Counted from the stretch's first letter, positions 1,087-32,000 are shown. The stretch is DNA of 32,000 nucleotides from Candidatus Absconditicoccus praedator (GCF_021057185.1 NZ_CP054059.1:840001-872000), one strand, 5' to 3'. Program-made: numbers and translations. Notes: generated by a model from the letters alone, not told the origin.

Positions 1087-1126
1087 TTTGTTGGTATGAA
1101 ATACATTTATAAATAAAAACAAAAAA

Positions 1127-3835: not shown

Positions 3836-4030
3836 ATGTGAGAATTTAAATTAGATAGGGGTATATATACGAAGAAAATATTGGAAAAGTCTATTAAGGA
3901 ATTTGAAGATTATTGCTGAAAGAAAATAGATTATGATGAAAATAAAACTGAATTTACTTTGAAGTGTGAAGAAGATGATTTTGTTGATATAGTAGATAAT
4001 TATATTTATTTGTATAATGAAGCTAATTAG
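3836..4030 (+). CDS. 64-aa protein, truncated paralog of the N-terminal half of the downstream HxsD-like protein
   Basis: ATG 3836 to TAG 4028-4030. LDRGIYTKKILEKSIKEFEDY...DDFVDIVDNY aligns with VDGKIFDKKTILRAAYELVDK...DGIVDSF of the next gene. Stop lies 1 nt before the next ATG. Confidence 0.45.
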
Positions 4031-4031
4031 A

Positions 4032-4562: not shown

Positions 4563-4591
4563 TTATTTACATTTATATAATCTTATTGGTG

Positions 4592-6010: not shown

Positions 6011-6035
6011 TTTTTAAATATTAAAAATAATTTAA

Positions 6036-7970: not shown

Positions 7971-7988
7971 TTCTTTTAATTGATTATT

Positions 7989-9079: not shown

Positions 9080-10012
9080 ATGGATAGACCTTTATTATTT
9101 GAAATAGTTATAACAAATTGATGTAATAAAAGATGTCCTTATTGTGATATTAATTTTGAAAGATGATTTATAAAAAATGAAGTTGTTGATAATTTCATTA
9201 AATCTATAAGAAATTATGATTGAGAGTTAGGGTGAATTCATATCAATTTTTTTTGATGAGAGCCTTTGTTGTGAAAACAACATATTGATCATGTTTTAAA
9301 ATCATTAGAAGAAATAAAAACAAAAATAACATATAGTTTGGTTACAAATTGATGGTTAATAGATGATTTTATTATAGAAAGAATATACAAATATGATATT
9401 AAAGTAGATATTAGTATAGATACTATAAATAATGATGTTTTGAAAGAAAATAAACATATAAAAGAGATTGCAAGCAGAGAAAAGACAAGTGTTAATTATA
9501 TATTTGTTCCTTGACAAATGAGTAATATTGAGGAAACAGCTGCTGTTATGAATGGTATCTGATTTGAAAATATTAATATAATACCAGTATATACTACTAT
9601 GAGTTGGAACAATGAAAATATAAAAATATTAGCAAAAAAAATTAATCAGTTTATCAAAATAAGTAAATCCAAAAATATATGATATTTTAAGTATGATAGA
9701 TGATTTTCCAGAGAAAGACAGTTTATATTAGATGTGTGAGGAGAAATATATCAGGATGTAGATAGTGATATTCGGCTTCAAAAGCAATATAATATTATTC
9801 CTGAATTTCTTAAAAAAAAGGTAGAAAATGAAATGTATCTATGAAATATAAACTATCAGAATTTAAATGAGATTATATGTTGATATGATGAGAGCGTTAT
9901 ATACAATTTGCTAAAAGAATTCGAACTTGAAATTTGAAAACAAAAAGAATATAAGAAAATAGATAAGATAATAGATTATTTTAGTATAATGACCAAAGCT
10001 AAGGATAGATAA
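9080..10012 (+). CDS. Radical SAM protein, 310 aa
   Basis: ATG 9080 to TAA 10010-10012. Motifs CNKRCPYC and FFGGEPLL (tga tga gag cct). Confidence 0.85.
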
Positions 10013-10039
10013 AATAATGTTTATTTTTTAAATTTAATT

Positions 10040-10927
10040 ATGAAAAAAAAAACTTCGGAAGTTACTACAGTTACCAGATGAATAGAAGTTGAACTAACAA
10101 GTATATGTTCTCTTAACTGTGAATTTTGTATTAAAAGTTATAGAACAGAGTTTGGTAACATGGATTTTGATACTTTTTCTAAAGTTGTAGATTTTATAAA
10201 ATTTCTTTGATGTATGGAAGTGGATATATCGTGAGTTGGTGATATTTTTCAAAATGATTCTTTGTATGAGTTTATAGATCATTTATTTGAAAAACTTCCT
10301 AATATAGATGCAGTTATTCCTACTAAATGACAGGATGTAACAATGGAAGATCTTAAAAAAATAAAAAGTTATAATGATAAAGGGTATAATATTACATTGA
10401 TGGCATCTGTAATATACTTAACTAAATGGAAATTTGATAAGTTTGTTGGTAGAAATCAATATGAAAAATTTGTTAAGTTTATAGATATGTTGAGGGATTC
10501 AGGAGTTAACTTTTCTCGAGAATTTGTGATACTAAAGAATAATTTGGATGATTTTGAGAAATTTAAAAAATTAGCTGAAAAAATAGGAAAAGAGTATGGA
10601 ACCTTGTTGGCATATAATTTTTGATGAAATCTTTCAGATGAAATTCATAAAAAATATTTTGATGAAGAAATTTTGAGAGATTATTTTGAATATAGGTCAA
10701 AGGAAGATGTATGTGAGGTGATGAAATATGATCATTTTTTTGTAGATTATAAAGGAGATGTATATATTTGTGCTAATATGGGTATAAATCCAGATGCATT
10801 GCTTTGAAATATAAATGATGTTTATCATGATTTTAATATTTTGTTAGAAAGAAAACAAGAATTTAGAAAAAAATATCATGATATTTGTAATAAATGTTTC
10901 TTTTATAAATATAAACTTCATGATTAA
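10040..10927 (+). CDS. Radical SAM protein with C-terminal Cys motifs, 295 aa
   Basis: ATG 10040 to TAA 10925-10927, in frame with track ORF 10343-10624. CSLNCEFC, then later CEV...GDVYICANMG...CNKC. Confidence 0.8.
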
Positions 10928-10929
10928 AA

Positions 10930-12303
10930 ATGATAACTCATACTTTTTATGCTTTAGTCTTATATCAGGCCCAAATATTATACAATCAAGATCTTTGAAA
11001 TGGTTACTTTCTTTTTGATATAAAAGAAAAAACTATGTGAAAAATAATTGTGGAGTTTAAAAAATGAAATAAAAAGAAAGGTATTTTATTTGTGCATAAA
11101 GATTTTAATACTGACAGAGTAGACTATCAAACAAATAATTGGTTTATTGTGTGAGAAAAGAGTTTGGTAGAATTTGTTTGAAAGAAAATATTAGATAATG
11201 AGCATGAAGATTTTAATTTTTTTAAGACATCTGAAGAATATATATGAAAAATATTTTGAGTGGTGCTTACAATAACAACTCATTGTAATCTGGCTTGCTA
11301 TTATTGTTTCAACGATTATGATTATAATTTAGATCAAAGAAACTTTATAAAACCTTTAACTTTTGAACAAATAAAGTGAATAGTTGATGATTTGTATAAA
11401 AATTGATGTAGAGATATTATAATTTCATGATGAGAACCCTTATTGCATTACGATTTTTTTAATATAATTGACTATTGTTTAAATAAGTGAATATATGTTC
11501 GTGTAAATACTAATTGAGATCTCTTGAATTCTAGAATAGTAGATAAAATAATTCAGTATCCTATAAACTTGATGGTTTCAATACACGAATTTAATGAAAA
11601 AGATTATGCATATACAAATGTTAGATGATTCAGTGAAATTTATAAAAAAGATGTGCCAGAAGAAGTTTTTTATAAAAAGTTTAGAAATAAAATAGAAAAT
11701 TTAAAAATAATATATAAATATCCTAATATTAATTTAGAGTTTATGACTATACTTGATAATAAAAATATTATAAACCTAGAAAAAATATATGATTTTTGCT
11801 TGAATCAATTTTGAATAACACAGTGGCATTTTTTTAGGCTATATAGTACAAAAATTTCTAAATGAATTTCAAAATGAATGATGTCACTTGCTATAAGAAA
11901 ATTGTACAATCTTAATAAAAAATATAATGTTGATTATAAAATAGTTGATGCAGTTCCTTTTTGTGTTACTAGAAAAACAGATTTGGCAGAAAAAGTAATT
12001 GAATGAGAATTAGCAGATAATCATAATGTAAAATTTATTATTACCAATGAATGAGGTTTTCAATTGATGTCATGATTTGATACTGTTGTTTGAAGTGTAT
12101 TTGAAGAATCTATTTCAGAACTTTTGAGTAAAGAATTTACTCAAAAGATGCTAAATAATTGATTTCTTCCAAATGAATGTTTGGATTGTGTGTATAAAAA
12201 TCATTGCAAGGGTGGAAGTAGAATGGAAGCACATATAGCTACCTGAAGCTATGCTGATTTTGATCCTTTATGAAAAATAGCAAATAAAAAATGTCAGATA
12301 TAA
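10930..12303 (+). CDS. Radical SAM protein with about 105-aa N-terminal extension and C-terminal C-x2-C-x5-C-x-G motif, 457 aa
   Basis: ATG 10930 (2 nt after the previous stop) to TAA 12301-12303. Motifs CNLACYYC, SGGEPLL (tga tga gaa ccc) and CLDCVYKNHCKGG. Confidence 0.85.
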
Positions 12304-13127
12304 GAATTGTAAATATATGTAATAATAATTGTATATATTGTCTAGAATCTTCTTATAGAAAAAAAAATAAGTATGAATCTTTAGATTATATTTATTTTCA
12401 AATAAAAGAAATTTCTAAAAACACAGATTTTCTATGAATTTTTGGATGAAATCCTTTGTTGCATCCAAATCTTTTGAATATCTTAAATTATGCAAGAACT
12501 CAAGGCATTAACAATATTTCCATACTTACTAATACTTATAAACTGGATAAAAATTTAATAAGTGATTTAGAAAAAAATTGACTAACTTGAATATGATTTT
12601 ATTTTAATACTTTTGATAAGTATACTCATGAATTAGTTAGTTGATGAGGAATATGATATGAGGAGTTATTAAAAAATATAAATTTAATTTCAAAATCAGA
12701 TCTATCTTATAAAGCAATTATTCATATAAATAAACAAAATATCGAAAATTTATATAAGGATGTTTTTATTTTATACAAAAAATTTGGTGTAGAAAGTTTT
12801 GAATTTATTTGATTTTTTCCATTTGACAAACCTTATGAAAAAAATAATAGAAATTTACTTTTTCTTGATTATAATAACTACAGAAAAAGCATAAATAAAT
12901 TGTTTGATGTTTTAGATAAAATTTGAGTAGAAACACATTTTATAAAATTTCCAAGAAGTTTTTTTGGGAACTATTGAAAATATTATGATTATAAATTTTG
13001 AGTATATGAGCAATTATGAAAAGAAGATATACAAAGGTTAAAAAAAACAGAACCGTATTGTAAAATAGAAAATAGGTGTAAATTTTGTTTTTTAATAGAT
13101 TATTGTAATAATGAATGAATAGCATAA
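12291..13127 (+). CDS. Radical SAM protein, 278 aa
   Basis: ATG 12291 overlaps the upstream stop by 13 nt; TAA 13125-13127. Motifs CNNNCIYC, FGGNPLL and C-terminal CKIENRCKFCFLIDYC. Confidence 0.8.
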
Positions 13128-13993
13128 CATTATTTTTAACTAATAAATGTAATTTGCATTGTGATTATTGTATAGTTAATATATGAAATAAATCGATTAA
13201 CGAAAACAATTTTTCTTGTCTATATAATTTTTTAAGTAAAAACATAAAAAAAATAGATACTATAAAATTTCTTTGATGAGAGCCATTGATTGAATATAAT
13301 AAAATTAAAAAAATAGCTAATATTTCTAAAAATATTAATTTTGAATTGGCTACTAACTGATATTTTATTAACAAGGAAATTGCTGATTTTCTGAAAGAAA
13401 AAAACTTCAAAGTTAACTTGTCTTTAGATTTTCAAAATAAAAACTATACTGAGAAATCCGAATATTTTAAAGGTTATAAAGATTTTTATTTTTCTTTGAC
13501 TTTGACACCTGAAAATCTTGATAATGCTTATGAATTTGTCAAAGGTTTTTATAAAAAATGATTTCGTAATTACAATATTTTACCTGTATTTTATAATAAT
13601 CTTTGGACTGATTCAGATATTGAAAAATTAAAATTATTGTATAAAAAACTTTTATCTTTGAAAATAGGATATAAAGAACTTTTTTTTGAGTGAGTTAATG
13701 ATGGGGACGAAAAGTTGTTGAATTATGATAAGATTTTTATAAATTACGATTGAGAAATTTTTTTATCAGATGTGGTGGAAAACTATATAGGAATATGATG
13801 AGATCTAAAAGATTCTGCTAAAATATGAAATATCAAAGATGTTGAAAATATAGATAGTTTGAATAAAATTATTAAAGAAAAAGAATACTTAATAGATAGT
13901 TATTTAAAAAGCTTTGAAGAAAAAGAAAAAAAATTATTTGATGTTGTGGATTATTTTTCAACTTATTATAATAAAATAAGTAAGTATTATTAG
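13115..13993 (+). CDS. Radical SAM protein, 292 aa
   Basis: ATG 13115 overlaps the upstream stop by 13 nt; TAG 13991-13993. Motifs CNLHCDYC and LGGEPLI (tga tga gag cca). Confidence 0.8.
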
Positions 13994-15654: not shown

Positions 15655-15899
15655 ATTTTTATTTGTATTTTCTGTATTCCAATAAATCAATGTCCGAATT
15701 AATTAAACAGTATCTATGTAATAAGTCATTAATCTTTTGAACTTCTACTTTAAAACAATCTAATAGATTTTCCTTTTCTTCATTTTGTAATTTTAGGCAT
15801 AATTAAAAAAATGTGCTACTATTTTAATTGCAATTTTGTGTTGCTATCTTTATAATTAAAATGAGTTAAATTTAAATTATTTATTTGATTTTAATTGAT

Positions 15900-16877
15900 A
15901 TGCTTGAAATTATTTCTAAGTATAGACAACTATTAGATTTTTTATATTTGTATTTTGATAAAGATGAATTTGTTGTTTTCGACTATAGGTTCTTATTTTT
16001 GGAATATTTACCCCCATGTTCTGTAGAAAAATATCATGATATACTTATGGAGTTTTTTGGCCCCAAAAATATAAAAATTTTTTTAGATAGATCAAAGTGA
16101 TTAGATTTTATAAGAAGCTATGAGTATGAAAATCTTTTGACTAAAGACATATCAGTAGATTTTGTGTTTTTATCAAAAGAAGAAATTTTAAATATTAATA
16201 AGTTTGATTTATTCTTTGAAGGTTTTAATTTCTTTGTTGATTATGAATCAATTGAAAAGGAAAATAATTTAATTGTTAAAGATTACTTAAACATTTTTAG
16301 TTTAAATACATATGACTTAAGATCTGAATATTATAATCGTTTTTTATGAGAAAAAAAAAGTTCTAGAGAAATTTTAGATGATAAATTAAGGTCATTAAAG
16401 AGAATATTATATTTTCAAAATAACATAAAAAATGAAATAAAATATAAGACTCAAGAAAAAAAACTTAGTAATTATTGTATTTTACCTGCAATCTTTAAAT
16501 TGAAGTCTGAAATAAAGTTACTTAAAAAATATATTCCCTCTCAAAAAGATATTATTAAATATATTTATTTTCAGTGAGATTTAAATTGCAATATCTTTGG
16601 TGATTATTACAAATGAAAAATTTGTATAATATGAAATAATAATGATTTATATTTTGATATACTTGTATGATATGATGTTGATAACTTTCACTTTAATCTA
16701 CTAGAAAAGGCAAAACTGATTATCGTGGAAGAAAGTACATTGCTTACTCATGCTATTTATATGTGTAGAGAAATTTGAAAACCTATAATTTATGGAGCTG
16801 AATATTTATATGAGGTGCTTGATGATTGAGATTATGTTGAAATTGATTTTAAACAAAAAATAATTAAGAAAAATTAA
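15900..16877 (+). CDS. Protein with C-terminal PEP-utilising-enzyme mobile (swivel phospho-His) domain, 325 aa
   Basis: In frame with track ORFs 15885-16100 and 16137-16349; TAA 16875-16877. C-terminus IIVEESTLLTHAIYMCREIGKPIIYGAEYLYEVLDDGDYVEIDF parallels the consensus xGxxSHAAIxAREyGIPAVxG...GDxVxVDG. Confidence 0.65.
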
Positions 16878-16902
16878 AATTTTATTGTAAATTAATATTG
16901 TC

Positions 16903-17640
16903 ATGTTTGAAAAGTCAAAAAAAATTGATATTTTAAAAAAAGAGCTTGAAAAAAGAAAATTGAAAAACATGGGGGTTCCCAATTATTTTTCTGGCTCTAT
17001 TAATGAGATTCCTAAATATTTTCAGTATTTAAATTCACCTTTAATCCTAAGAAGTTGTGTTAATCATGAGGATTGAAAATACTCTTTTTCGGGAGTATTT
17101 GAATCTTTTTATCCAATATATACAGAAGTAGAACTGAAAAAATATTTATCAAAAATGTCTATTTTTTGAAATATTAAATTGAAAGAATATGAAAAGCTTA
17201 ATGAATTAAATAATTTTCATTATTATATTTATCCTATTTTACAGGAATTTATAATATGAGACTTTAGTTTTGTGATTGATACTTTATTTAAAGATAAATA
17301 TTTAAGGATAGAAGCTGTTCCATGAATAAATGAAAACTTAACTTCTTGAATATCTAGAGAGTCAGTAATTATAAATTATGATAAGCTACAAAAAGAATTT
17401 TACATAGAAAAAAATATTAACAATAATGATTATTTTTTAACTATTTTAAATTGAAAAAAACAAAGTAAGTTTTTCTTAGTGCCTTCTTTTGAAATAAATT
17501 TTTTTAGATATTATGTTAACAAACTTATAAATGCCTGACTTTTGATTGAATATATATTTAGTGGTAAATCACAGATTATAGAGTGAACTATTAAAAATAA
17601 AAAAATATGGGTATTACAATCAAAAGATAAAACTGTGTAA
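16903..17640 (+). CDS. PPDK_N / PEP-synthase-type ATP-binding (ATP-grasp-like) domain protein, 245 aa
   Basis: ATG 16903 to TAA 17638-17640. LILRSCVNHEDGKYSFSGVFESF parallels the RSSAxxEDxxxxSFAGQ motif, followed by QEFIIGDFSFVIDT...EAVPGINENLTSG. Confidence 0.6.
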
Positions 17641-17772: not shown

Positions 17773-18600
17773 ATGAAGAAACAAAATTGATATGTAATAA
17801 TTAAAATTCTGTATAAGCTTGAAGAAAAAAATAAAATACCCAAAATCAGACTTCCTGAAAAAAAAAGGTTTGTAGAGTGGTTAGATAAAGACTTAATAAA
17901 GTTATTTTTTTGTGAACCACAAAATATTATAAATAGGTTTTTATCAGAAAAAAATTATAATGAAATAAATGGATCAATAATATCAAAAATAGATTATACT
18001 CATTTAAAGAATCTTTTTAACTTAAATTTAGATTCTTCATTATCCGAACTTTATGAGACAGAAAGGAAAGAATGATATAAGACAAGTGTTTATGCTTTTT
18101 TATTTAAAATTTATAGTGATTTTTTATTCTCTACAAATTATATAAAATTGAAAGAAAAAGAATCTTTATTCAATCATTTAGAAGTATGAAAAAATAAAAA
18201 AAAATTTAAAAATTCTATATTTCAATATATTTATGAGTGAGAAGATGAAGTTATATATTTTGATAATGAGTGAGAAGTGTTTGTGAATTTTTGATTTGAA
18301 AAATATGCTTTAAAGTATTTTAATAAATTAAAACTTTGAAAATCAAATTTTTTACCGGATATACTTTTTACAGATTTTGATAACATAAATAAAAGGTCAG
18401 CCATTATTCAAAATTATAATTATAATAAAAAGATAAATTATTATTTGTTTGGAAGAGCAATTATTAATAATGATTGGTCAGAGACTGAAAAATTATTTTG
18501 TCAAGTAGAAGATGTATTCGATAGCTGACAAAAAGTTGCTAAGATAGAGGACAAAAATTTAAGATTTTATTTAGAAAAAGAACTAAAAGATATAACTTAA
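17773..18600 (+). CDS. 275-aa hypothetical protein, soluble paralog of the C-terminal module of CDS 6528-7970
   Basis: ATG 17773 to TAA 18598-18600. Shared blocks EGY(K/R)T, FKIYSD, TNY, EG(E/K)DE(V/I)IY(F/Y)D and GEVFVN(F/Y)GF. Confidence 0.65.
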
Positions 18601-18637: not shown

Positions 18638-19588
18638 CTATTTAAAAATTGATTTATTATGTAATATTTTTTTTATTTTTTCTTTTCATCATATATATTC
18701 TAAGAATTTTTTATTAAATCAATGACAATAATCATTAAATTTGCATTTTTTACAAAAACTTAATTTTTGCTTGTCTTCCAATATATGTTCTGTATTAGTT
18801 GTAAAACTTTTATTATTTATTAATGATTTGTACTCATCACTATATTTAGATAGATCTATTATACAAAATGGTGGTGCTGAAAAATGAAAGTTTATATCAA
18901 TATTATTCCTTTCACATAATGATACTATTTTTTTGATTTCTTTTACCTGTTTTGAACTAAAGTCTAATAACACTTCTCTTCTATTTTCTCGAGCATATCA
19001 ATTTGGGAATACAAGTCATATATTTAATTCTCTTTGAAAGAGTAAATCTATTATATCATGGTCTATTAAAAATTGTATAAAATGCTTTGTGTTATAAATA
19101 TTATTTTTTGTAATAACAATATTTATAGTTATTTTTAATTTCTTATGAATATTATTCTTTCTTATATAATTAAACCATTCTATAAATTCTTCTTTGTTTA
19201 AATTTGTTCACATTTTATTATTTATATTTTCATCATGAGAGTGTTGTCATATAAATAACATATCTAATCAATTATTTATTAAGCTATTTATTTTTTCTTT
19301 TTTTTTGAATAGTATTATTCAGTTTGTTTGTAGCTCTATTCATCAAAATCCAATTTTTTGAGCCATTTTAATATATTTTTCTATATTTTTATTTAATAGC
19401 GGTTCTCATCAAGAAAATGTTAAAACAGTATTTTTTAGGTCTGTCTTATTTTTTTTTGCTTTTAAAATTATATTATTAATGATTTCATCTTTTGTTATAT
19501 TTTTTTCAAAATTATTTGTTTCTATAATATTGCAAAAATTACATTTTAAATTGCAATAATAAGTAATTCTTATTACTTCATTTAACAT
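18638..19588 (-). CDS. Radical SAM protein with C-terminal C-x2-C-x5-C-x-G motif, 316 aa; paralog of CDS 22770-23822
   Basis: Extends track ORF 18719-18973 in both directions through TGA. ATG at 19588, TAG at 18638-18640. Motifs CNLKCNFC, SGGEPLL, QHSH and CKKCKFNDYCHG. Confidence 0.8.
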
Positions 19589-19773: not shown

Positions 19774-20736
19774 TTAAACATTATAAATAAATGGTGCTCT
19801 ATTGACAGTGGTATTAAATATATTGATGTCTTTAGATAATCAATATATTTCTCGTGGAGTTTTATAATTTAATGCCGAATGAAGTCTTTCTTGATTATAT
19901 TTATCAATATATTCTTGCAAACAATTATATGCTTCTAATGGAGTTCTATAATCATATATATATACTTCTTCTTGTTTTATAGTCCTAAAAGTTCTCTCTA
20001 CTATAATGTTGTCTATCCATCTTCATTTTCAATCCATGCTTATTTTTATTCCATTTTCTTTTAGTTTGTTTGTATATCTTACACTTGTAAATTGACTTCA
20101 TTGATCAGAATTAACTATCTCTGGATGTTCATATAATGCAAGTGCTCTATTTAGTGCACTTATACAAAATTCTGACTCTAGTGTTAATGATAATTCCCAA
20201 GATAGTATTGCTCTACTATACCAATCAATTATTACTACCAAATAAACCCATCAATGTTTTAAACGGATATATGTTATATCTGTTGCCCATACTTGATTTG
20301 GTCTTGTGATTTCTAGGTTTCTTAATAAGTATGGATATTTTTCATTTTCTTTATTAGGTATACTTGTTTTTTTTCAAGGGTATATAGCTGTTAGTCACAT
20401 TTCTGCCATAAGACTACTGACTTTCTTTCTTCAAACATTAAATCACTCTCTTTTTAGTTGGTGTTTAATTCTTCTACTTCAGTAATATGGATGTTCTGTG
20501 TATATTTCATCAATTCTATCCATAATTTGTTTTTCTTTATCTGACACCTGTTTTTCATGATATAAGCTCGATTTAGATATTCATAATAATTCAGATTGTT
20601 TATTAATAGATATTTCTTTGTTATCCTTTTCTATTAATTTAATTTTTTCAGAATATGTTAGGTAATTCTCCAATTTTTTTTTCCAGCCACTCTTTTTCCA
20701 TAGTGACTTTTCATAATTTTGAATATAAATGTTCAA
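19774..20736 (-). CDS. IS3-family transposase OrfB (DDE / rve integrase core); open frame, probably expressed as an OrfAB fusion
   Basis: Frame open 20736 to TAA 19774-19776. Motifs WATDITYI, NSDQGSQFTS (the Gly is TGA), ERTFRTIKQEEVY and HSALNYKTPRE. Confidence 0.85.
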
Positions 20737-20953
20737 TTAGCTTTTCATTTTCTTTATCCTTATTGTTTTTTTCTCTCTTGTCGTCAAATATACTTTCAGC
20801 ATTTTCTATAAATTGTTGTTTCCATCTGTTTTGTTGATTAGGATGGACTCAATATTCGCTGGTTATTTGAGATTGAGTTTTATGACCATGTATAAGTTCA
20901 GTAATGACTTGTAGTTTAAATTTGGAACTGTACTTATTTCTCTTATTTCCCAT
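20639..20953 (-). CDS. IS3-family transposase OrfA (helix-turn-helix / leucine-zipper part), 104 aa
   Basis: ATG at 20953, TAA at 20639-20641. MGNKRNKYSSKFKLQVITELIHGHKTQSQITSEYGVHPNQQNRWKQQF...LYSKLGKVTMEKEWLEKK. Confidence 0.8.
20674..20682 (-). other. A9 tract (T9 on the plus strand) at the orfA/orfB overlap; candidate slippage site
   Basis: ctg gaa aaa aaa att in the orfA frame. orfB lies in the +1 frame here and the -1 frame closes after 5 codons. Confidence 0.6.
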
Positions 20954-21427: not shown

Positions 21428-21521
21428 ATATAATTGTTTTTTTATTTTACTAAAATATTCTTGAATTAAACTATAAAAAACTTAGTATATTAGTATAATT
21501 TTAATTTAAAATATTTTGCTT

Positions 21522-22766
21522 ATGACTATAATTTCTTCTGAAAATAGAGTATGGGTAAGGATAAGTAATTCTTGTATAAGTTCTTGTATATTTTGTTTGG
21601 ATTCAGACAATTTAAAACAAAAAAGTTTTGTAGAAGATAAAATAATAAAGTATGAGTTAGAGAAGTCATATAAAAAATGATATAAAAATAAGGCTATAAT
21701 CTCTGGGTGAGAAGCTAGTATTAATCCTAAATTTATTGATTATATAAAATATGCAAGGGATGTTTGATATACAAAGATACAGACAATAACAAATTGATAT
21801 AAGTTTTGAAGTGAAAGTTTTACAAAAAAATGTATAGATAACTGACTTGATGAAATAACTTTTTCACTTCACTGACATACTCCTGAACTTCATGATAGCC
21901 TTACCTGATTAAAATGAGCTTTTAAAAATATTATAAAAGCAATTTATTATATAAGGAATAATCATCCAGAAACTATAATAAATTGTGATATTATTATTTG
22001 TAAACCTAATGTAGGTTATGCATATAAAATAGTGCAGTTATTGAAAAGGTTGCAAGTTTTTGAGTATGATATACTACAGATTGTCCCTCAGGCTTTAGCA
22101 TGGGAAAATAGAGGTGATTTGTTGTTTGATGATATATATAATCACAAAGAAAGTTTACACAAACTATGGAAAGAGTCTGAAGACAAAAGAGTACATATGC
22201 GAGCTAATAGGGTGTTTCCATGACTTTTAGAGTGATTTGAGGATATGATTCAATCTCCAGAAAAAATGTCAGATGAAGTTCTTAATGAGGCTAAGAAGGA
22301 GTGGGAAAGAGTCTTTAAAAAAAGAAAATTGCCTGAGTGTAGAGATGAAATTAGGTGTGCAAATTGTTATATGAATTGGTTTTGTGATAACCTAAATGAG
22401 TTCTATTTTTCTTCAAATAAAAAAAATAAAAAAGAAAAACTTTTCTCACATAGAAGTATTGATAAAATAAATGAAATTTATCCAGCTGATATTGTTAATT
22501 TTAAATGAGAAGTATTTGGTAGGGATGTTTTAAATCTTCCATACTGTTTATCTTGAAAAAATAATTCATTTACAAATTTTAATGATTATTTGCTAGAACA
22601 TAAAATACAAGCAAACATAGTTAATTTTACTAATTGGTTTATGGATGAATGATTTAGAATAAAATCAACTTGATGTAAAGAATGTAAACTATATAATTCT
22701 TGTAAGTGAATTCATATAAATTTTATAAAAAAATACTGATTTAAAATACTTAATCCAATTAAATAA
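21522..22766 (+). CDS. Radical SAM protein with C-terminal C-x2-C-x5-C-x-G motif, 414 aa
   Basis: ATG 21522 to TAA 22764-22766, in frame with track ORFs 22032-22223 and 22245-22508. Motifs CISSCIFC, SGGEAS, CRDEIRCANC and CKECKLYNSCKG. Confidence 0.8.
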
Positions 22767-22769
22767 TAA

Positions 22770-23822
22770 ATGGTTCAATATATAAATGAGATAATAAGAA
22801 CAAATTATAAGTGTAATCGAAAATGTAAGTTTTGTAATGTACTAAAAACAAATAATTATTGAGTTGTAGATGTTTCTGATTGAGAAGTTATAAATAAAAT
22901 TTTAGAAATTGCTAGAAAATATAATGAAGATCAATTAAAGTATGTAACAATTTCCTTTTCATGATGAGAACCTTTAATGAATAAAAATTTAGAAAAATAC
23001 ATAAAACTAGCAAAAAAAATATGAATATGAACTGTAGAAATACAAACTAATTGAATATTGTTAATCAATAATAAGTTTAAAATTAATAAACTATATGATG
23101 CTTGATTGGATGAAATTTTTATAGCACAACATAGCCATAAAAATGATGTAAATTATAGTTTATGATGCTTTTTGGACACAAAAAAACTAGAGGAGCGAGT
23201 TTTCTATGTTAAAAAAAATAATATTTATACACATGAGAAAAATCAACATTGAGTTTCAATTTATTTAAATATTGTTATTACAAAAATTAACTTGCCCTAT
23301 TTAAAAGAATTTTTATTATATCTAAAAAAAATATGATTTATTGATTTAATAGAACCTAGGCATCATTTTGATTGAAACTGAAATTTGGAAAAGGTGACAA
23401 GGAAAATATCTTTATGATTTGTTCAGCCTCATTGATATGCTTGGGAATATTGAAAAGAGGTATTGCTCGATTTTAATGATGAACAAAAAAGATATATAGA
23501 GGAACTAATAAATTACTGTGAAGAAAATGATTTGTTGCCGGATATTCATTTTGTGGGTCCTCCTCTTTGCTTGATGTATTATCCCAAGTATAATTTAGAA
23601 TATAACAGGTTGAAGAAAATAGAGGAAGATAAAAAAAAGTGACTTCAAAACGATGAAAATATCGACACATTCAGAGTTTTACAGAAAGAAAAAAGTAAAC
23701 TTAAAGAGTGTGAAAGATGCAAATATAACAAATTTTGCTTATGAATATACAAGGCACGATTAGAGTTTTTTGGAGAAGAATATGCTAGGAAAAAAATTAA
23801 TGAATTTATAAAAAAACAGTAA
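22770..23822 (+). CDS. Radical SAM protein, 350 aa; paralog of CDS 18638-19588
   Basis: ATG 22770 to TAA 23820-23822. Motifs CNRKCKFC, SGGEPLM, QHSH, GYAWEYGKEVLLDF and CERCKYNKFCLG. Confidence 0.8.
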
Positions 23823-23826
23823 TATA

Positions 23827-24789
23827 ATGAATATTTGATATTTACAAATAACTAGAATATGTAATCATAAATGTATATTTTGTTCTAACCCTTCAAATGG
23901 TAATTTTTTATCTTTATCTGAAATAGAAGATTCAGTTAAAATACTAAAAAAAGAATGATTTAATTCTATTATAATAACATGATGAGAGCCTACTATTCAT
24001 CCAAATTTTATTGATGTTGTAAATATTATTAAAAATAATTGAATTGAAGCTAGAGTAATAACTAATGGGTACCTATTTTCAAAAACTGAAAATGTAAAAC
24101 AAATTAAAGATGCATGAATAAATATTGTTCATTTATCGGTTTATACATATAAAAAAGAGTTAAACGATAAAATTAGAGAGTATCCTTGAGCATTTGATCA
24201 AATGGTTAAAGCTATTATAAATTTAAAAAAGTATTGAATTACTACTCAAATAACTTCTGTAATTACAAAATATAATCAAGATCATTTGGATAAAACAGTA
24301 AAATTTATTAAAAAACTAAATCCAAATATATCACATTTTGTTCGAAATGTTATGGATCCTGAAATGATGCCAAAAAAATGAAAAGATAAAAAAGATGAAA
24401 TATTACCTGACCTGGAAAAGGCTGGTAATAGCTTGGTTCAAATATTTAAATATTTAGAAAGTATATGAAATACTTTTAGGGTTGAAAAAATGCCACTTTG
24501 TTTCATACCTTGATATGAGTGGGCTAATACTGAATGTAGAAAGATAGTAAAAGATGAAAAAAGATATGTTCGTTTTTTGGACTTTAGAGAAAAAATTAAT
24601 GAGTCTTGAAGAGATTTTCAACATTGATTGCTTGATGATTGTAAAAATTGTATATTAAATGAAATATGTTGATGAGTATATGAAAATAAAAAACGATATA
24701 ATTATATAAATGTGAAACCCAAATGAATTGATTATAAAGGCAATTTAGAAAAGATAATTTTAAAGATAAAATGAAAAACAAAAGGATAG
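23827..24789 (+). CDS. Radical SAM protein, 320 aa
   Basis: ATG 23827 to TAG 24787-24789. Motifs CNHKCIFCSNPS, TGGEPT and CKNCILNEICGG. Confidence 0.8.
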
Positions 24790-25679
24790 AGATACCGTTG
24801 TGATGGAAGTGTAATGAAAGGTGTTTTTTTTGTAGTGAAACAGAGTTGATAGAATATCATAAGTGAAAGTCATTAAGTTTTGAGTATTTTTATAAGTTGC
24901 TAATTTCTTATTATAAAGAAGGTTATAATCATTTAACAATAGTATGATGAGAACCAACTATAGAGAAAAACTTTATGAAAGCAATAAAGTTAGCAAAAAA
25001 ATTATGAATGTGAGTGCAGATATCAACTAACTGATTAAGGTTTGAGGATGAGGTTTTTAGTAAAGAGGCAATGAAGTATATAGACCGAATAACATTATCA
25101 GTTCATACAATAGAAGATGATTTATTTAAAAAGATTACACAAACGAATATAGATTGATGGAAAAGTAGGCTTGAAAAGATATTAAAAAATATTTGAAAAT
25201 ATAAAGATAATCATGAAATAAGAATAAATTATGTGTTAACAAATTACAATATAGAGCATTTAAAAATATTAGACACTATAAATTATATAGAGAAAAATTT
25301 GCCTAATTACACATCTTTTGTACTAACTTATCCGGATATTACAGTTATAGAATCTGGAGAATTAACAAAAAAAATTAAAGTTAAAAAAGATGATTTATTT
25401 TCTTCTTTAGAAATACTTTATGAAAAACTTTCATCTGACCAAACTAGGAAATTGGTATTGGCAGATATGCCATTTTGTTTTGTTCCAGAGGAATTACATG
25501 GGAATTTACAAGATAATTTTATGGCATTAGATAGTATATCAAAAATATTTATAAAGGATGAAAAAAAGAAGCATGATAGGAATAAAGTAGACCCTAGGTG
25601 AAGATTTAAAGCAAATCAATGTAATAATTGTAAGTATTCTCATACATGTTTTTGATTTCCTAACATATTTGAGTTTTAA
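24771..25679 (+). CDS. Radical SAM protein, 302 aa
   Basis: ATG 24771 overlaps the upstream gene by 19 nt; TAA 25677-25679. In frame with track ORF 25233-25601. Motifs CNERCFFC, VGGEPT and CNNCKYSHTCFG. Confidence 0.8.
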
Positions 25680-26971: not shown

Positions 26972-27706
26972 TTATTTTTTATTTCAAGTTTTGTTTTTTA
27001 TAAATTTATTTAGGTAAAAAAGATTTTTTTTAATTATTTTATTTTCTTGTTTTGATGTGTTGAGTAAATTATATAAGCATTTGTTGAAGTTCATTTCATT
27101 TACTTGTTTTTTGTGTCAGATTTTAATTATTATGTTTCCTTTATAATTTATTAATTTTTCTCATTGTTGAAATTCAATTTCATAGTATATATAATCTATG
27201 TTTTTATTTAGAAGGTAAAAGTTTATGTTTGTCAATATTGTCGAAAAATTTTTATATGTTAGAAAGTATCATAATGAATGTTCTAGTATGTCTCTATCAA
27301 ATGCTGATTTTATTTTAATAGGTTTCCTATTTAAGATTAGATTTAAATATATTTCATCATTGAAATAAAATATGTTTTCTTTATCAATTATTTGATTTAA
27401 TAAATCTAATTCATAAGATACGGGTTTTTCTATTATTATTTTTGAATTTTTAATATTTGTACTAAGTATAAATTTTAATACTTTGGTTTGTTCTGCAGTG
27501 GGACTTATGGCAATTATAATAATATCAAATTTTTCAAAAAATTTTATGTTTTTTATCTTATCAAATTTGAAAATATTAGTTCAATTGAATTTGTTTTTTT
27601 TATCTACTCATGATCTATTGCATAAGCTAATCCTGTATCATAGCGACTTGAAATATTGGTAATATTTGAGTCCTTGTTTTCATGTTCACAATATTAAAAC
27701 ATTCAT
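26972..27706 (-). CDS. Rossmann-fold NAD(P)-binding oxidoreductase-like protein, 244 aa
   Basis: ATG at 27706, TAA at 26972-26974. N-terminus MNVLILGTGKQGLKYY has a GxGxxG motif with two Gly as TGA. Confidence 0.55.
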
Positions 27707-27730: not shown

Positions 27731-28984
27731 TTAGCTTTTGATTCACTCTTTTCTATTTTTTGCAATTTGTAATAATTCTTTTGGGCTCAAAAATATTAAT
27801 CAGTAAAATCATATATTTTTTTCTTCTCAATTGTAATATAAGTACCTATCATCTTCAATTATAATATTATTTTTGATTAAGAAATCTATTTCTTCTTTAA
27901 ACATGTCTTTAATGTTTTTATTGAACTTTTTTTTGAAATCTATTTTGTCTATTTTATCTTGAAAGGATTTTAAAGTATATGATAGAATCTCATAATTATT
28001 ATCTAATTTTTCTATAGAAAAAATAAATTTTCAATTTTTAAAAAAACTTGTTTCATAACTTCATAGATTTCGAACTTTAGAAATGCTTTTGTATCAAACA
28101 CCAAAAATAGATTTTTTTTCATTAGAATACAATCAAAAGCTTTTTTTACTGTTTCAAGATTTTTTATGTTTAAAAATATATCACAACACATTGTTCAATT
28201 TTGTTGTGTTATATTTGTTTTTTATTTTACTGCCTTTAATTGTTTTTGTAAATAAATTTTCCAAATTGTCATAAAATTTATCTCAATATTTTATATATAT
28301 ATTATTTGTCTTGTTTTGTTCTTTCATTACAGTGTAATATGTGATGCTATCAGGCTCACACTCTTTTAATATATTTAAATTACTTATAAAATCACTTATG
28401 TCATCATCTCATAATCATAGAACTAAATCTGTATTTATGAATTCTATTCATACTTTTTTTCAGTAACTTATAAATTCTTTAATTGTTTCTTTATCTACGT
28501 ATCTTCTATTTTCTTTTTCTAGTGTGTTCTTATTGAATGATTGGACTCAAAAGCTTATTCTATCAAATCATAGATCTTTTACTTTTTTTATTTTAGATAA
28601 TGATGTAGAGCAGGGATTTAATTCTATTGTTTTTTGATAGTCTTTATTGAATTTAAAGTTTTTAAAAATATATCAAAATATGTCCTCCATCTCACTTTCA
28701 TTTAATGTGCTAGGAGTTCCTCATCAAACATAAATTCAGCTAAATTCAACTTTCTTAAATAAATCTATAAAATTGTATAAAAAATTTTTAACATCTAAGA
28801 TATAATCTTTTTTTTGTTTTTGATTTGTTAGCAAAAGTTTGTCATACATACAATATTTACAAATTTTTTCACAAAATGGAATATGTAAGTAAAAACTAAT
28901 GGGATGGTTGTTGTCTATAATCTTTAAGTGTTTTTTTCGTAGATTTATTATTTCTGTTTTGCTTACTTCTTTTTTTTTGTTCAT
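27731..28984 (-). CDS. HemN/HemW-family (coproporphyrinogen-III-oxidase-like) radical SAM protein, 417 aa
   Basis: Extends track ORF 28736-28984 through TGA to TAA 27731-27733. Motifs SFYLHIPFCEKICKYC, YVGGGTPS, ISFGVQSF and DLVLGLGDDD. An alternative in-frame ATG lies at 29065. Confidence 0.85.
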
Positions 28985-29151
28985 ACTAAACCTATCAAAT
29001 AAAAAATCATGTCATGGATTTATCAATTTTTTTATTATTCTTCTTTTTTTTTCAATAGAATTCATGTAGAGTAAATAAAATCTAAAAAGTTCTTGAAAAA
29101 ATATTATTTTTTTATAAACTTAATTCAAGTTTATTTTGATATAAATATTGA

Positions 29152-30045
29152 ATGAAAAGAGCTGATATAAAGGTTTGATTTTCTTGTAATAATTTTTGTG
29201 AATTTTGTGTGCAGTGAGATAAAAGGTTTTTGTTTAAGCCACGTTCATTAGAAAAAATAAAAGAAATCACAAAGCATGAATATGATAATTGATGTAGGGA
29301 AGCAGTTTTTACTTGATGAGAGCCAACTGTTCATCCGAAACTTGTGGAGGCGGTTTCATACGCAAGTAGTATCTGATATAAAGAAATACAAATACAATCA
29401 AATTGAACAAATTTTGATGACATTAATTATTGTAAAAGTCTTATTAATGCTTGAGTGACACAGTTTTGACCTTCTATTCATTGAGCTAATCCATCTACTC
29501 ATGATGATTTGGTTAAAACTAAATGAGCCTGGAAAAGGGTTGTAAAATGAGTACATAATCTAAAAAGATTAAGACAAGCTATAATATTTAACATTGTTGT
29601 TACTAAGAAAAATTATAGAGAATTACCTAAGCTTTCAAAAATACTGTGTGAACTGTGAGTTTCTCAACTTCAATTTGCTTTTGTTCATATATTATGATCT
29701 GCTGATAAAAATAAAGTAAAGATTGTTCCTAAAAAGACTGATGTGATGCCATATATAAAAAAATGAATAGATATATGAAATCTCTATAAAATTCCAGTTT
29801 TTACAGAAGCTATTCCATATTGTCTGATGCAGTGATATGAGTATGCAATAGCAGAGAATATAATGCCAGAAACAACAGTTATTGATGCTGAACATACTAC
29901 AGAAAGTTATAAGGATTATAGAGTTGCTGAATGAAAAGTAAAGGTTGAAAAATGTAAGACTTGTAAATACTTTAAGTATTGTGAGTGACCCTGGAAGGAA
30001 TATCCTGAAATATATTGATGGGATGAGTTTGAGCCAATTAAATAA
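29152..30045 (+). CDS. Radical SAM protein with C-terminal C-x2-C-x5-C-x-G motif, 297 aa
   Basis: ATG 29152 to TAA 30043-30045. Motifs CNNFCEFC, TGGEPT and CKTCKYFKYCEGPW. Confidence 0.8.
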
Positions 30046-30066: not shown

Positions 30067-30894
30067 ATGAAAAAGATTGTTATTTACTGAAAGTGATGAA
30101 TTTGAAAATCTACTGTTTCAACTCACTTAAGTGTATATTATGCTCTTAATTGATATAAAGTGCTTCAAGTTGGTTGTGATCCCAAACATGATTCAACAAA
30201 AAGGCTGCTTCCTAAAAATACTGATATAAAAACTGTTATAGATATAACAAAATATTATGATATAGATGAGATTTCTAAAGATATGTTTGTATATAGTTGA
30301 AAATTCTGAATAGATTGTGTAGAGGCTGGTTGACCAATTGCATGAATTTGATGTGCCTGAAGATGAATATCATTAATGTTTGAGATTTTTGAAGAAGTTG
30401 ATTTGCTGCAGACAAGTAACTATGATATAGTTATATTTGATGTACTATGAGATGTGGTTTGTTGATGATTTGCTTCGCCATTAAAAATTTGATTTGCAGA
30501 CAGTGTTTATCTGGTTACCTCTGAAGAAATAATGTCTTTGTATGCAGCAAATAATATTGCTAGAGCAGTAGTTAATTACTCAAGAAATTGAATTGATTTA
30601 TGAGGATTGATTTTAAATCAAAGGAGTAATGATGTTGATATTGCCCCAGTAAAAGGTTTTGCATATAGTATATGAACTAAAATTATATGAACTGTTCCTA
30701 GGTCTAATGAACTTTTGGAGATGGAAAAAAAATGAAAAACAGTTTTTGAAGATGATTCTTTAAGTTATTCCACTATTGTAAAACATTTTAAAGGGATTGC
30801 AGATAATATTGATGAATCTAGATGAGTTGTGCCTACTCCGTTTGATGACAAAGAATTTGATGACTTTGTTTTTTACAACTTTCAAAAAAAGTAA
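30067..30894 (+). CDS. NifH/BchL/CfbC-family nitrogenase-iron-protein-like ATPase, 275 aa
   Basis: ATG 30067 to TAA 30892-30894. Walker A YGKGGIGKST (30085-30114, all four Gly are TGA), VGCDPKHDST, CVEAGGPIAGIGCAGRGI and DVLGDVVCGGFA, so both [4Fe-4S]-ligand Cys are present. Confidence 0.9.
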
Positions 30895-30896
30895 TT

Positions 30897-32000
30897 ATGA
30901 ATAGGGTGTTTTTTTGAGATTATAATGCAAAAAAAATATTTGAAAAATTATTTAACTTAAAAAATCTTGAGATAAAATTTATATCAGCAACACCTGAAAA
31001 TATTTGAATATTTATACAAAAAAATAACTGCTCTCTATACATTAAATTAAAAAACAATGATTGAGTTTGCGTTATTGATTCAAATCAAAAACAAGATGAT
31101 ATATTTATTAAAGCAAAAGAATTTTTTGAAAAAAAAAGTTATTATTGATTTTTTAATATGATTAAAAAAAATTCTTTACAATGAAGTAGTTTAGATATAA
31201 ATGAACAAATTGTTTGATATATTGATGCATGTTTTATAATGTGAGCTTTAAGATCGCATCAAAAATTTCAAAAAAAAGAACTAGATAATATTTTAGATTT
31301 TACATTCTTTTCAGATTATGTGTATGAAAGAAAAGCCAGAGATACTCTTGATTATGAGTTTTCTTCCTGTTATATAAATCATAGTGAGTTGGAGTGTTAT
31401 ATTTGTAATGCTGAATCATTGTTGGGATGAAGTTCTAAGTGAATGAGTAGTTTTTTTGAATTTGAAGATCAAGATAATTATAGTAGTGATTTTTATGAGT
31501 CCGACTATGTTAATGAAGATTGATATTTTACAAATATAACTCAACATGATACAATTGTGGAATGATGAATTTACAAAATAGAGGAAATATTGGATAATCT
31601 TGATTTTGAAAAATATGATGTAATTACAATTAATCAAACTTGTACTCCTTCTATAATTGGGGATGATTTGAGATCGCTTATTAAAAGGTATCAAAAAAAA
31701 ACAAATACGCCTATTGTTTATAAGGATCAAAATGCTTTTGATTCGTACAAAGAATTAGAAGTTCTTGTGAAAAAGAATAAAAATTCTCATAAAATAAAAA
31801 ATAGTTTAATATATGTGTGAGTTTGAGATTATGATTTTATTGAGGAATCAAGTAATTTATTTTGATGAATCTGAATTCGTTTTAATGGTAATATTGTTCC
31901 AAAAGTAAATAAGAAGTTGATAGATATGTACTGAAGATCAGAAACACAAGTTTTATTTAAAAGTGATTTAAATGAAGAATTAAATCATATCTTTGATGAT
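30897..32000 (+). CDS. Nitrogenase component-1-type (NifD/K/E/N, BchN/B, CfbD-like) oxidoreductase with N-terminal extension; 3' end outside window
   Basis: ATG 30897 (2 nt after the NifH-like stop), in frame with track ORF 31590-31820 and open to the window edge. INHSELEC matches the H-x4-C spacing of HGPxGC. ITINQTCTPSIIGDDL matches the TCxxxxIGDD cluster-ligand motif. Confidence 0.65.

Follow-up and report, generated by a model that had tools for sequence, protein, structure and literature searches.

A 32,000-nt stretch of the genome of Candidatus Absconditicoccus praedator (GCF_021057185.1, NZ_CP054059.1:840001-872000), hereafter the window, ends within a set of nitrogenase-like (NFL) genes: nflH, encoding an Fe-protein component, and nflD and nflK, encoding two component-1-type subunits. 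The NflHDK proteins fit Group VI of the NFL family, newly placed here in Candidatus Absconditibacteriota, a phylum not listed in the paper that defined the group. Judged by its genes, the surrounding island is an expanded His-Xaa-Ser (Hxs) system of at least 30 kb with the nflHDK operon at its end. We give roughly even chances to the proposal that NflHDK is a Group VI ATP-dependent reductase which, within this island, reduces an intermediate made by radical S-adenosylmethionine (SAM) enzymes on the repeat protein HxsA4. An earlier note on the same DNA had described a two-component nitrogenase-like reductase at the edge of a radical SAM island and had considered this a new context for the enzyme family. 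The island is real, but the note overlooked both its His-Xaa-Ser identity and the precursor gene at 6036-6500; the system has three genes (H, D and K) rather than two; and Group VI genes with radical SAM suites, two Gracilibacteria included, were published in 2020 and are covered in a 2026 review (Chem Rev, PMC13474568). Nitrogenase-like genes among radical SAM genes were already known; the link of Group VI to a His-Xaa-Ser system seems to be new.

The genes that carry the argument are listed below. Sequence beyond the window was taken from Logan contig L001, which is identical to the window across 10,947 nt (window coordinate = L001 coordinate + 21053), and positions above 32000 are window equivalents.

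4017-4562, plus strand: HxsD (TIGR03976, 54 bits, cutoff 50)
4586-6010, plus strand: HxsB radical SAM/SPASM maturase (TIGR03978, 413.8 bits, cutoff 370)
6036-6500, plus strand: HxsA4 His-Xaa-Ser repeat protein, candidate substrate (NF038313, 56.7 bits, cutoff 55)
29152-30045, plus strand: HxsC4-like radical SAM enzyme, first gene of the predicted rSAM-NflH-NflD-NflK operon (PF04055, 88.7 bits; HxsC4 NF038332, 140.7 bits over the full length, HxsC second)
30067-30894, plus strand: NflH, NifH-family ATPase and predicted [4Fe-4S] electron donor (275 aa in code 25; PF00142)
30897-32000, plus strand: NflD (PF00148), first 368 of 563 aa; the gene ends at 32588
32596-33876, plus strand, outside the window: NflK, 426 aa (PF00148, 128.9 bits, end to end over residues 20-419)

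An intact NFL trio in genetic code 25

The whole window has a GC content of 24.5% and shows long open reading frames (ORFs) throughout once TGA is read as glycine (table 25). The source organism, a co-cultured species, belongs to Candidatus Absconditibacteriota (code 25), in agreement with the reduced candidate phyla radiation (CPR) genome that had been suspected. Translation with table 11 was ruled out, as it fragments the region at TGA codons that occupy invariant glycine positions. Within nflH, 22 in-frame TGA codons stand beside 5 standard glycine codons, and 13 of the 22 fall in alignment columns with glycine in all 20 homologues. Because the TGA codons match conserved glycine columns, nflH is intact and native to a code-25 genome, and the reading of nflH as a pseudogene was ruled out with all of its motifs intact under this code. 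Public translations of the same gene in which TGA is read as Trp (P0002, P0122) appear as '92-95% identical' relatives and may distort homology counts.

NflH scored 266.7 bits against PF00142 (cutoff 25), with models of the CbiA/ParA/ArsA/MinD/MipZ type reaching at most 52 bits. It carries the Walker A motif GKGGIGKS (residues 8-15), the CDPKHDST motif (37-44), CAGRG with Cys96 and DVLGDVVCGGF with Cys132. Walker A, switch I and II, both cluster cysteines and the PF00142 score place NflH among the NifH/BchL/CfbC Fe proteins, as the earlier note had claimed, and a MinD/ParA-type identity was ruled out by profile scores and motifs. The protein lies below every NCBIfam equivalog cutoff; nifH is the top model (269.9 bits, cutoff 394) and CfbC the second (259.7/402), followed by BchL (213.8/345) and BchX (157.5/331). 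An NCBI entry from Ca. Absconditicoccus praedator with the name 'ArsA-related P-loop ATPase' matches it at 100% identity. The homologues from L002 and L005 (L numbers denote contigs or loci, P numbers proteins) carry this name or 'AAA family ATPase', and JGI relatives are named 'nitrogenase iron protein NifH'; either naming style could cause false negatives or false positives in nitrogen-fixation surveys.

The nflH stop codon (TAA, 30892-30894) is followed by two nucleotides (TT) and the ATG of nflD at 30897. That nflD starts at this distance, runs beyond the window and encodes a component-1-type protein with H-x4-C and TCTPSIIGDD motifs had been read correctly: PF00148 matched the window fragment at 39.4 bits and the full-length protein at 62.8 bits (residues 210-515; cutoff 28.6), and the two motifs are HSELEC (H162...C167) and TCTPSIIGDD (248-257). 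All 8 NflD homologues tested matched the same family (best E 1e-30). The contig extension disclosed a second PF00148 subunit, NflK, so that both D and K belong to the component-1 oxidoreductases; unrelated genes encoding an HD-domain protein, an AAA_28 protein and a DNA ligase, described as housekeeping, follow 3' of nflK in L001. The N-terminal extension of NflD, previously put at about 140 aa, measures about 70 aa relative to NifD and is longer relative to BchN; no Pfam family was found on it in 8 homologues. The idea that it is an HxsD-like or HxsB N-terminal, peptide-binding-like domain was rejected at the sensitivity of hhalign (probability 0.1%).

Both subunits show identities of only about 20% to NifD/K-type proteins. 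Word-seeded searches with NflD returned 3 proteins each, whether a single sequence or an 8-sequence profile was used, and the family was revealed by an exhaustive HMMER search, which found only 253 NflD-like representatives among 1.84 billion proteins. With NflK, phmmer gave a single weak match in the PDB, and a profile search reached NifK, NifD, VnfD and BchB with the ligand region unaligned. Some Elusimicrobiota genomes have two NFL copies or a duplicated nflK: L011 and L015 come from the same metagenome-assembled genome (MAG; SO_2017_GW1_178), and L008 and L015 encode two NflK each.

Gene 29152-30045, nflH, nflD and nflK are separated by only 21, 2 and 7 nt, and for this reason the four genes are predicted to be one operon. 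A promoter and terminator scan gave 47 sites against 42.7 expected and zero terminators in this 25% GC DNA, and carries no information.

Assignment to Group VI

Group VI nitrogenase paralogs were defined in groundwater Elusimicrobia by Meheust et al. 2020 (bioRxiv 10.1101/765248; ISME J), where up to 13 radical SAM genes co-occur with them. That paper gives homologues from two Gracilibacteria and fourteen Myxococcales genomes and predicts tetrapyrrole reduction as their function. These three taxa (Elusimicrobia, Gracilibacteria, Myxococcales) also supplied the closest relatives of NflH. In a neighbour-joining tree rooted on a single BchL, with few outgroup classes and with CfbC and BchX not included, the window NflH grouped with Gracilibacteria sequences at 100% bootstrap and, in an enclosing clade of moderate support (54-66%), with those of Elusimicrobiota and Myxococcota, apart from a 100%-supported clade of NifH and the 9fmg Fe protein; the phylogeny that the earlier note had recommended thus places NflH with Group VI taxa outside the NifH clade, at that moderate support. 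Similarity scores were 240-370 bits to members of the clade, at most 204 bits to any NifH in the PDB and about 156 bits to BchL. The trio was filed as Group VI because taxa, clade and similarity scores agree. The traits of the group are also present, namely divergent D and K subunits, at most four of six P-cluster cysteines (three here), absence of ligands for the iron-molybdenum cofactor (FeMo-co), and 14 radical SAM genes in the window. Section 7 of the 2026 review (PMC13474568) gives the same ligand pattern for Group VI and no characterised member.

Assignment to better-known classes was ruled out, as had been expected for nitrogen fixation and for chlorophyll or F430 synthesis, by missed equivalog cutoffs and lacking ligands. 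For a true nitrogenase, the scores fell short throughout (nifH 269.9/394, nifD 23.4/653, nifK 15.8/427) and both P-cluster and FeMo-co ligands are lacking; no NifB was found among the window radical SAM genes and no NifE or NifN 3' of the trio in window and contig L001. Dark-operative protochlorophyllide oxidoreductase (DPOR) and chlorophyllide oxidoreductase (COR), which form Group V, were ruled out by BchL at 213.8/345, BchX at 157.5/331 and BchB at 15.2/490, and CfbCD (Group IV-B) by CfbC at 259.7/402, CfbD at 16.8/268 and the presence of an NflK partner. A Group VI-like D-K-H-rSAM cluster was also seen at 8488-13099 of L012 (CAYMIF010000012.1), in a MAG labelled 'uncultured Methanosarcinales archaeon'; this is an archaeal occurrence or a binning error.

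Predicted metal-cluster ligands of NflD and NflK

Homologues of NflD and of NflK (17 each) were aligned with MAFFT to annotated NifD/K from Rhizobium and Clostridium and BchN/B from Thiodictyon. For BchN and BchB the alignment was poor around the first ligands, and the ligand comparison with DPOR therefore rests partly on established knowledge. NflD keeps Cys167 (equivalent to NifD Cys88) and Cys249 (equivalent to Cys154) in 17/17 homologues and has no equivalent of NifD Cys62. Neither FeMo-co ligand is retained: at the positions of NifD Cys275 and His442 the window NflD has Lys and Asn, and all 17 homologues have varied residues there. In NflK the one cysteine kept is the Cys95 equivalent (Cys41, in DGPDC; 16/17); the Cys70 region is missing, a Pro stands at the Cys153 position, and an invariant His-Asp pair (His53/Asp54) lies 12 residues past the retained cysteine. 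One of the L015 NflK paralogs has Ala at the DGPDC position and has lost the conserved cysteine.

Three of the six P-cluster cysteines are thus retained (the equivalents of D Cys88, D Cys154 and K Cys95). From this alignment, the three conserved cysteines at the D/K interface are predicted to exclude both a P-cluster and FeMo-co. The ligand check that had been suggested accordingly returned a pattern that fits one [4Fe-4S]-type cluster with a non-cysteine fourth ligand, as in DPOR, the cluster type being inferred. In DPOR the cluster ligands are three cysteines from BchN and an aspartate from BchB.

The island as an expanded His-Xaa-Ser system

HxsD, HxsB and HxsA4 are encoded consecutively at 4017-6500, each above its curated cutoff. 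HxsA4 consists of a hydrophobic N-terminal segment, a (HGS)x12 tract (6384-6491) and a C-terminal RW. At least 7 of the 14 radical SAM genes in the window, gene 29152 included, have HxsC or HxsC4 among their top matches; those with HxsC4 as the top-scoring family, gene 29152 and its orthologues among them, are called HxsC4-like here despite a missed cutoff. By gene content, then, the island of at least 30 kb is an expanded His-Xaa-Ser system with the nflHDK operon at its end, and this identity supplies a candidate substrate, HxsA4, for the pathway. PADLOC defence models, from a library older than HXS, gave only generic viperin-like radical SAM similarity on the island.

HxsA4-type precursors from other loci (L017-L096) fall into the C-terminal classes …HGSHGQW/…GSW, …GGWC and …SSY and have 4-28 repeats; those homologous to the window precursor end in GQW, GSW or GGWC in 44 metagenome loci. 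A leader 'FL(T/L/M)SEEGK' is often conserved among them and is not present in the window HxsA. Precursor type was rejected as a predictor of NFL genes, since long W-ending tracts occur in NFL clusters but also in loci without visible NFL.

Linkage of Nfl and Hxs genes in other genomes

The same association was found in other genomes. In an Elusimicrobia locus of 65% GC and standard code (L003), HxsD, HxsB, HxsA, two radical SAM genes of the types of window genes 21516 and 29152, NflH, NflD and NflK are contiguous and are followed by six more radical SAM genes; the HxsA of this locus has about 25 repeats and ends in GQW. L019 (73% GC) has the same contiguous layout, and in L074 (27% GC) HxsB lies 8 kb from NflK/D. 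A repeat precursor and dedicated maturases thus share an island in four unrelated genomes. In Gracilibacteria-type loci (L002, L005, L006, L100 and L101) the trio is accompanied by orthologues from as many as ten or more window radical SAM families, and window-type radical SAM sets also occur in L003, L008 and L015; the Elusimicrobiota loci L008 and L015 contain the 21516, 23827 and 29152 types.

In a reverse survey anchored on HxsB, 80 metagenome loci were collected, with HxsD in 62 and an HxS-repeat ORF in 44. The 29152, 21516, 23827 and HemN-like (27731) types recur directly 3' of HxsD-B-A in these loci, and for this reason the radical SAM types that flank the trio are considered regular members of expanded Hxs systems. 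The NFL trio itself was found in 3/80 (L019, L036, which is the same as L003, and L074), a lower bound because most of the loci end inside the radical SAM array.

A functional tie between the trio and the co-directional radical SAM gene 21 nt upstream of it had been suggested from the window alone, and is backed by adjacency and by fusions. Counting the window, a 29152-type gene lies close to an Nfl gene in eight loci: the distance is 21 nt in the window and at most 38 nt in L003, L005, L008, L012, L014, L015 and L019. Among the 151 of 253 NflD-like sequences examined for fusions, there were 14 NflH-NflD and two Radical_SAM-NflD proteins (P0216, 770 aa; P0270, 1133 aa), confirmed with Pfam. 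A Myxococcales locus (L007, 4516-7359) encodes a Pfam-confirmed NflK-Radical_SAM fusion in which the domain tail …CKECSMTDRCLGVPTPYGKHFGLDELQPF matches the tail of window gene 29152-30045. The NflH-NflD fusions (L008 7608-9977, L011 7632-9986, L019 18123-20414, P0142, P0156 and 12 others) comprise an intact NifH domain, a Pro/Ala-rich linker of 60-80 aa and an NflD without the usual N-terminal extension. On this architecture, the H-linker-D fusions argue for a stably assembled NflH-NflDK complex. In the available text of the Group VI paper (bioRxiv 10.1101/765248) and of the 2026 review (PMC13474568), a tethered Fe protein is not mentioned.

Our literature search found no paper linking nitrogenase-like enzymes to the maturation of peptides, including peptides made on the ribosome and modified after translation (RiPPs). 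Hxs is not mentioned in the available text of the Group VI paper or of the 2026 review, nor are nitrogenase-like genes in that of the HXS paper (PMC13128918).

Comparison with characterised systems

Features that the window has in common with other Group VI systems are a NifH-like ATPase that keeps both cluster cysteines, D and K subunits of high divergence, the absence of NifB and many radical SAM genes; it differs in that the published proposal for the group is tetrapyrrole reduction, whereas the window neighbourhood is an Hxs peptide system, with radical SAM-Nfl fusions in relatives. The Mo-nitrogenase shares homology in all three subunits, the same gene order and the same logic of ATP-gated electron transfer. 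Unlike it, NflDK lacks Cys62 (D), Cys70 and Cys153 (K) and the FeMo-co ligands, and NifB, NifE and NifN were not found in window or contig.

DPOR (BchL/BchN/BchB) resembles NflHDK in its three-gene H/D/K composition, a single [4Fe-4S]-type interface cluster (three Cys and one non-Cys ligand; predicted for NflDK) and the absence of a complex cofactor. The closest mechanistic parallel for NflHDK is the reaction of DPOR, in which ATP drives the reduction of a double bond in an N-heterocycle. The two differ in that NflHDK would take two cysteines from D and one from K, and chlorophyll-pathway genes are not nearby. CfbC/CfbD is similar in its simple Fe-S clusters and in CfbC being the second-best model for NflH; however, CfbD needs no K subunit, while an NflK is encoded here, A. 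praedator is not a methanogen, and an F430 context is absent. CfbC is an Fe protein reported (PMC13474568) to form a persistent complex with its partner, which parallels the natural H-D fusions.

Isethionate reductase IsrBHDK (Group IV-F) and methylthio-alkane reductase MarBHDK (Group IV-C) provide examples of an NFL H/D/K trio that is encoded with, and dependent on, a radical SAM partner (PMC11423573, PMC13474568). In contrast to the window, IsrB and MarB are NifB homologues with a part in supplying a cofactor, the substrates are small organosulfur compounds, and the 9fmg Fe protein groups with NifH, not NflH; the partner in the window is a radical SAM enzyme of the HxsC family, of peptide-maturase type.

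The canonical HXS of E. coli acts against phages; HxsB, HxsC and HxsD process HxsA there, with a change of +8 Da inside an HxS repeat, and the product is exported (Nat Commun 2026, PMC13128918). Together with Haft's His-Xaa-Ser systems (TIGR03976-03979; HxsA4/HxsC4), it resembles the window in having HxsD, HxsB, HxsA4 and HxsC-like radical SAM genes. The canonical system has four genes, five repeats and a peptidoglycan-binding domain, and nitrogenase-like genes are absent (PMC13128918), whereas the window island counts 12 repeats and 14 radical SAM genes and also encodes a methyltransferase, a U32-family protein and NflHDK.

Proposed role and alternatives

Family membership, ligand pattern, operon layout, conserved adjacency, fusions and Hxs identity are the observations from which we infer an electron path, a cluster type, a substrate and a chemistry for the trio. 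An NflH dimer, its [4Fe-4S] cluster bridged by Cys96 and Cys132, would bind and hydrolyse MgATP and dock on NflDK. A low-potential electron would then pass to one [4Fe-4S]-type cluster located where NflD and NflK meet, with NflD Cys167 and Cys249, NflK Cys41 and one non-cysteine residue (such as NflK His53/Asp54 or the Glu, near-invariant, that precedes NflD Cys167) as its ligands. NflDK would pass electrons and protons on to an unsaturated or cross-linked intermediate that has arisen on the (His-Gly-Ser)n tract of HxsA4 through the action of an HxsC4-like radical SAM enzyme; this reduction may be likened to that of a pyrrole-ring C=C bond by DPOR. A bolder form of the proposal, which we hold tentatively and would not bet on, is that Group VI enzymes are the first in the nitrogenase superfamily with a ribosomally made protein as substrate: NflHDK, complexed or fused with the HxsC4-like radical SAM enzyme, would for example saturate an imidazole-derived or cross-linked heterocycle on HxsA4 and so define a reductive branch of HXS.

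Several observations weigh against peptide reduction by NflHDK. The Hxs core lies 24 kb from the trio in the window with an IS3 element between them; in five Gracilibacteria-type loci (L002, L005, L006, L100, L101) none of HxsA, HxsB and HxsD was seen in the +-10 kb around the trio, and a search near the same trios for another His-rich or tandem-repeat precursor ORF found none. No window gene reaches the HxsC (TIGR03977) or HxsC4 (NF038332) cutoff, the best being 120.5/267.9 (gene 23827) and 140.7/500 (gene 29152), and 29152-type orthologues beside HxsA elsewhere score 131-178/500 on HxsC4. At least L067 and L068 are truly without the trio locally; given this and its presence in 3/80 loci, Hxs maturation is not generally NFL-dependent. 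Conversely, most Myxococcota trios have no radical SAM neighbour (L004, L010, L013, L016). On the protein side, hhalign detected no similarity of the NflD extension to HxsD or to the HxsB N-terminus, and an AlphaFold2 model of full-length NflD from 3 sequences was unusable (mean pLDDT 38.8, pTM 0.26). Biochemistry is lacking for every Group VI member (PMC13474568). Finally, adjacency and fusions fit equally well with NFL as an electron feeder of the radical SAM enzyme.

This last point leads to an alternative that we find unlikely but credible, in which NflHDK, as a dedicated ATP-driven and low-potential 'activase', supplies electrons to the [4Fe-4S]2+ or auxiliary clusters within the HxsC4-like radical SAM enzyme and does not itself reduce the peptide. 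Radical SAM enzymes depend on a reductant of low potential, and donors of this kind are few in reduced CPR genomes. Besides the tight adjacency and the fusions of radical SAM domains with NflD or NflK, the H-D fusions imply a permanently assembled electron-transfer chain, and the trio is dispensable in most Hxs clusters, as expected if a ferredoxin or flavodoxin usually serves. On the other hand, radical SAM genes are lacking around the stand-alone trios of Myxococcota, the trio is also retained by metabolically rich Elusimicrobiota and Myxococcota, and we know of no precedent for an electron-donor role of an NFL system. Moreover, every characterised NFL D/K binds and reduces a substrate rather than a partner protein (PMC13474568). 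The published view, that Group VI NFL reduces a tetrapyrrole or other small cofactor precursor and that the radical SAM enzymes tailor a small molecule, we regard as quite unlikely for this locus. It draws on the clade lying close to Groups IV and V, both tetrapyrrole-reducing, and on HemN_C and B12-binding radical SAM neighbours (bioRxiv 10.1101/765248). The window adds a HemN/HemZ-like gene (27731-29065) and some radical SAM genes that score best on NirJ/AhbD families; these scores, however, are far under their cutoffs and lower than or comparable to those for HxsC/HxsC4. A. praedator is reported to prey on phototrophic bacteria, and such a predator could scavenge tetrapyrroles. But the HemN-like gene, the main contextual argument for this view, is also found beside HxsA in many NFL-lacking loci and therefore belongs to the peptide system, so that it does not count as evidence for tetrapyrroles; HemN-like radical SAM enzymes, moreover, often use non-tetrapyrrole substrates. 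Zero tetrapyrrole-biosynthesis genes were found in the window or in the 12 kb beyond, and the repeat precursor shares its island with maturases in all four of the unrelated genomes above.

We consider it very improbable that NflDK is a NifEN-like scaffold or maturase that assembles or holds a metallocluster for the His-rich HxsA or another acceptor, with NflH as an ATP-dependent insertase. The best NCBIfam match of the NflD fragment is indeed NifE, at 28.8 bits, and HxsA is extremely His-rich (12 to 28 repeats), a plausible metal ligand; NifH also acts in cluster maturation besides catalysis, which is established knowledge and appears in PMC13474568. Yet 28.8 bits are negligible beside the NifE cutoff of 505, a NifB homologue was not recognised among the island radical SAM genes, ligands for a large cofactor are absent, and canonical HxsA bears a covalent organic modification, not a metal cluster (PMC13128918). 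A genuine if unusual nitrogenase, in the manner of the Group IV-A Nfa system of Endomicrobium, is effectively refuted: although nifH is the top NCBIfam model for NflH (269.9 bits) and the gene order is H-D-K, the nifH cutoff of 394 is missed, three of six P-cluster cysteines remain, both FeMo-co ligands are missing in all 17 homologues, NifB, NifE and NifN do not follow the trio, and NflD and NflK are about 20% identical to NifD/K-type proteins. Peptide reduction by NflHDK thus stays the preferred reading, at the even chances given above.

Other genes of the island

The remaining island genes for which a family or fold could be named are the following.

9080-13993, plus strand: five consecutive radical SAM genes (9080-10012; 10040-10927; 10930-12303, SPASM/NirJ-like; 12291-13127, HxsC-like; 13115-13993); orthologues in L002, L005, L100 and L101
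14222-14980, plus strand: U32-family protein with a Cys-rich C-terminus (PF01136, 25.9 bits, cutoff 22.4); L002 orthologue at 226 bits
14956-15654, plus strand: SAM-dependent methyltransferase (PF13847, 49.4 bits)
18638-19588, minus strand: radical SAM enzyme, paralog of 22770 (NCBIfam PqqE-like 70.8 bits, HxsC4 53.6 bits)
21516-22766, plus strand: HxsC4-like radical SAM enzyme, 21516 type (HxsC4, 104.8 bits); orthologues in L002, L003, L006, L008, L015, L019, L100 and many HxsB-anchored loci
22770-23822, plus strand: HxsC4-like radical SAM enzyme (HxsC4, 78.7 bits); orthologues in L002, L100 and L101
23827-24789, plus strand: HxsC-like radical SAM enzyme, 23827 type (HxsC TIGR03977, 120.5 bits); orthologues in the NFL loci L002, L003, L008, L015 and L100 and many HxsB-anchored loci
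24771-25679, plus strand: radical SAM enzyme (PF04055, 70.6 bits); orthologues in L002, L100 and L101
25676-26929, minus strand: radical SAM enzyme (PF04055, 39.3 bits)
26972-27706, minus strand: Rossmann-fold (GFO/IDH/MocA-like) protein (PF01408, 22.3 bits, under the cutoff of 24); weak orthologue in L006
27731-29065, minus strand: HemN/HemZ/HemW-like radical SAM enzyme (NCBIfam HemZ 135 bits, HemW 130 bits, below cutoffs); orthologues next to HxsA in many NFL-lacking loci

Methyltransferases adjoin the trio also in L002, L006 and L101. In addition, the window encodes an arginine-deiminase-fold protein (7980-9074; PF02274, 25.7 bits; C-terminal GGGLHC) and a split pair at 15885-17640 resembling phosphoenolpyruvate (PEP)-utilising enzymes or pyruvate, phosphate dikinase (PPDK); these and the U32-family protein may be tailoring enzymes. 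A NodU/HypF-type carbamoyltransferase of about 700 aa, absent from the window, stands beside the trio in L005 (1-237), L006 (7844-9955), L100 (1-670) and L101 (7647-9734), which suggests an extra tailoring step in Gracilibacteria-type lineages.

Two paralogous proteins at 6528-7970 and 17773-18600 share 35% identity over 250 aa (E 6e-47) and have no Pfam or NCBIfam match; the one directly 3' of HxsA is highly acidic in its N-terminal half and is predicted to have a membrane anchor. A secreted-looking protein of about 850-900 aa, likewise without a Pfam match, is encoded at 1088-3649 and recurs beside radical SAM/NFL clusters in L006 (17141-19858) and L100 (16645-19221), at 98-108 bits. An IS3-type element on the minus strand (19774-20953), with two overlapping ORFs (HTH_Tnp_1, 35 bits; rve, 91 bits), splits the Hxs-led left block from the Nfl-ended right block.

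Implications

Tetrapyrrole reduction, so far the one published proposal, names no specific molecule. The Hxs link offers an encoded candidate substrate, HxsA4, together with a short list of partner enzymes, which makes the question testable by co-expression and mass spectrometry. Should the Hxs link fail, the locus would remain a clean, complete code-25 example of Group VI, useful for expression work. The A. praedator genome is 1.1 Mb, and the Hxs link, if it holds, suggests that this predatory CPR bacterium devotes about 3% of its DNA to an island related to a known anti-phage system. If the proposed role is true, an ATP-dependent reductive step would be added to radical SAM peptide maturation, and nitrogenase-family chemistry would extend from small molecules to protein modification.

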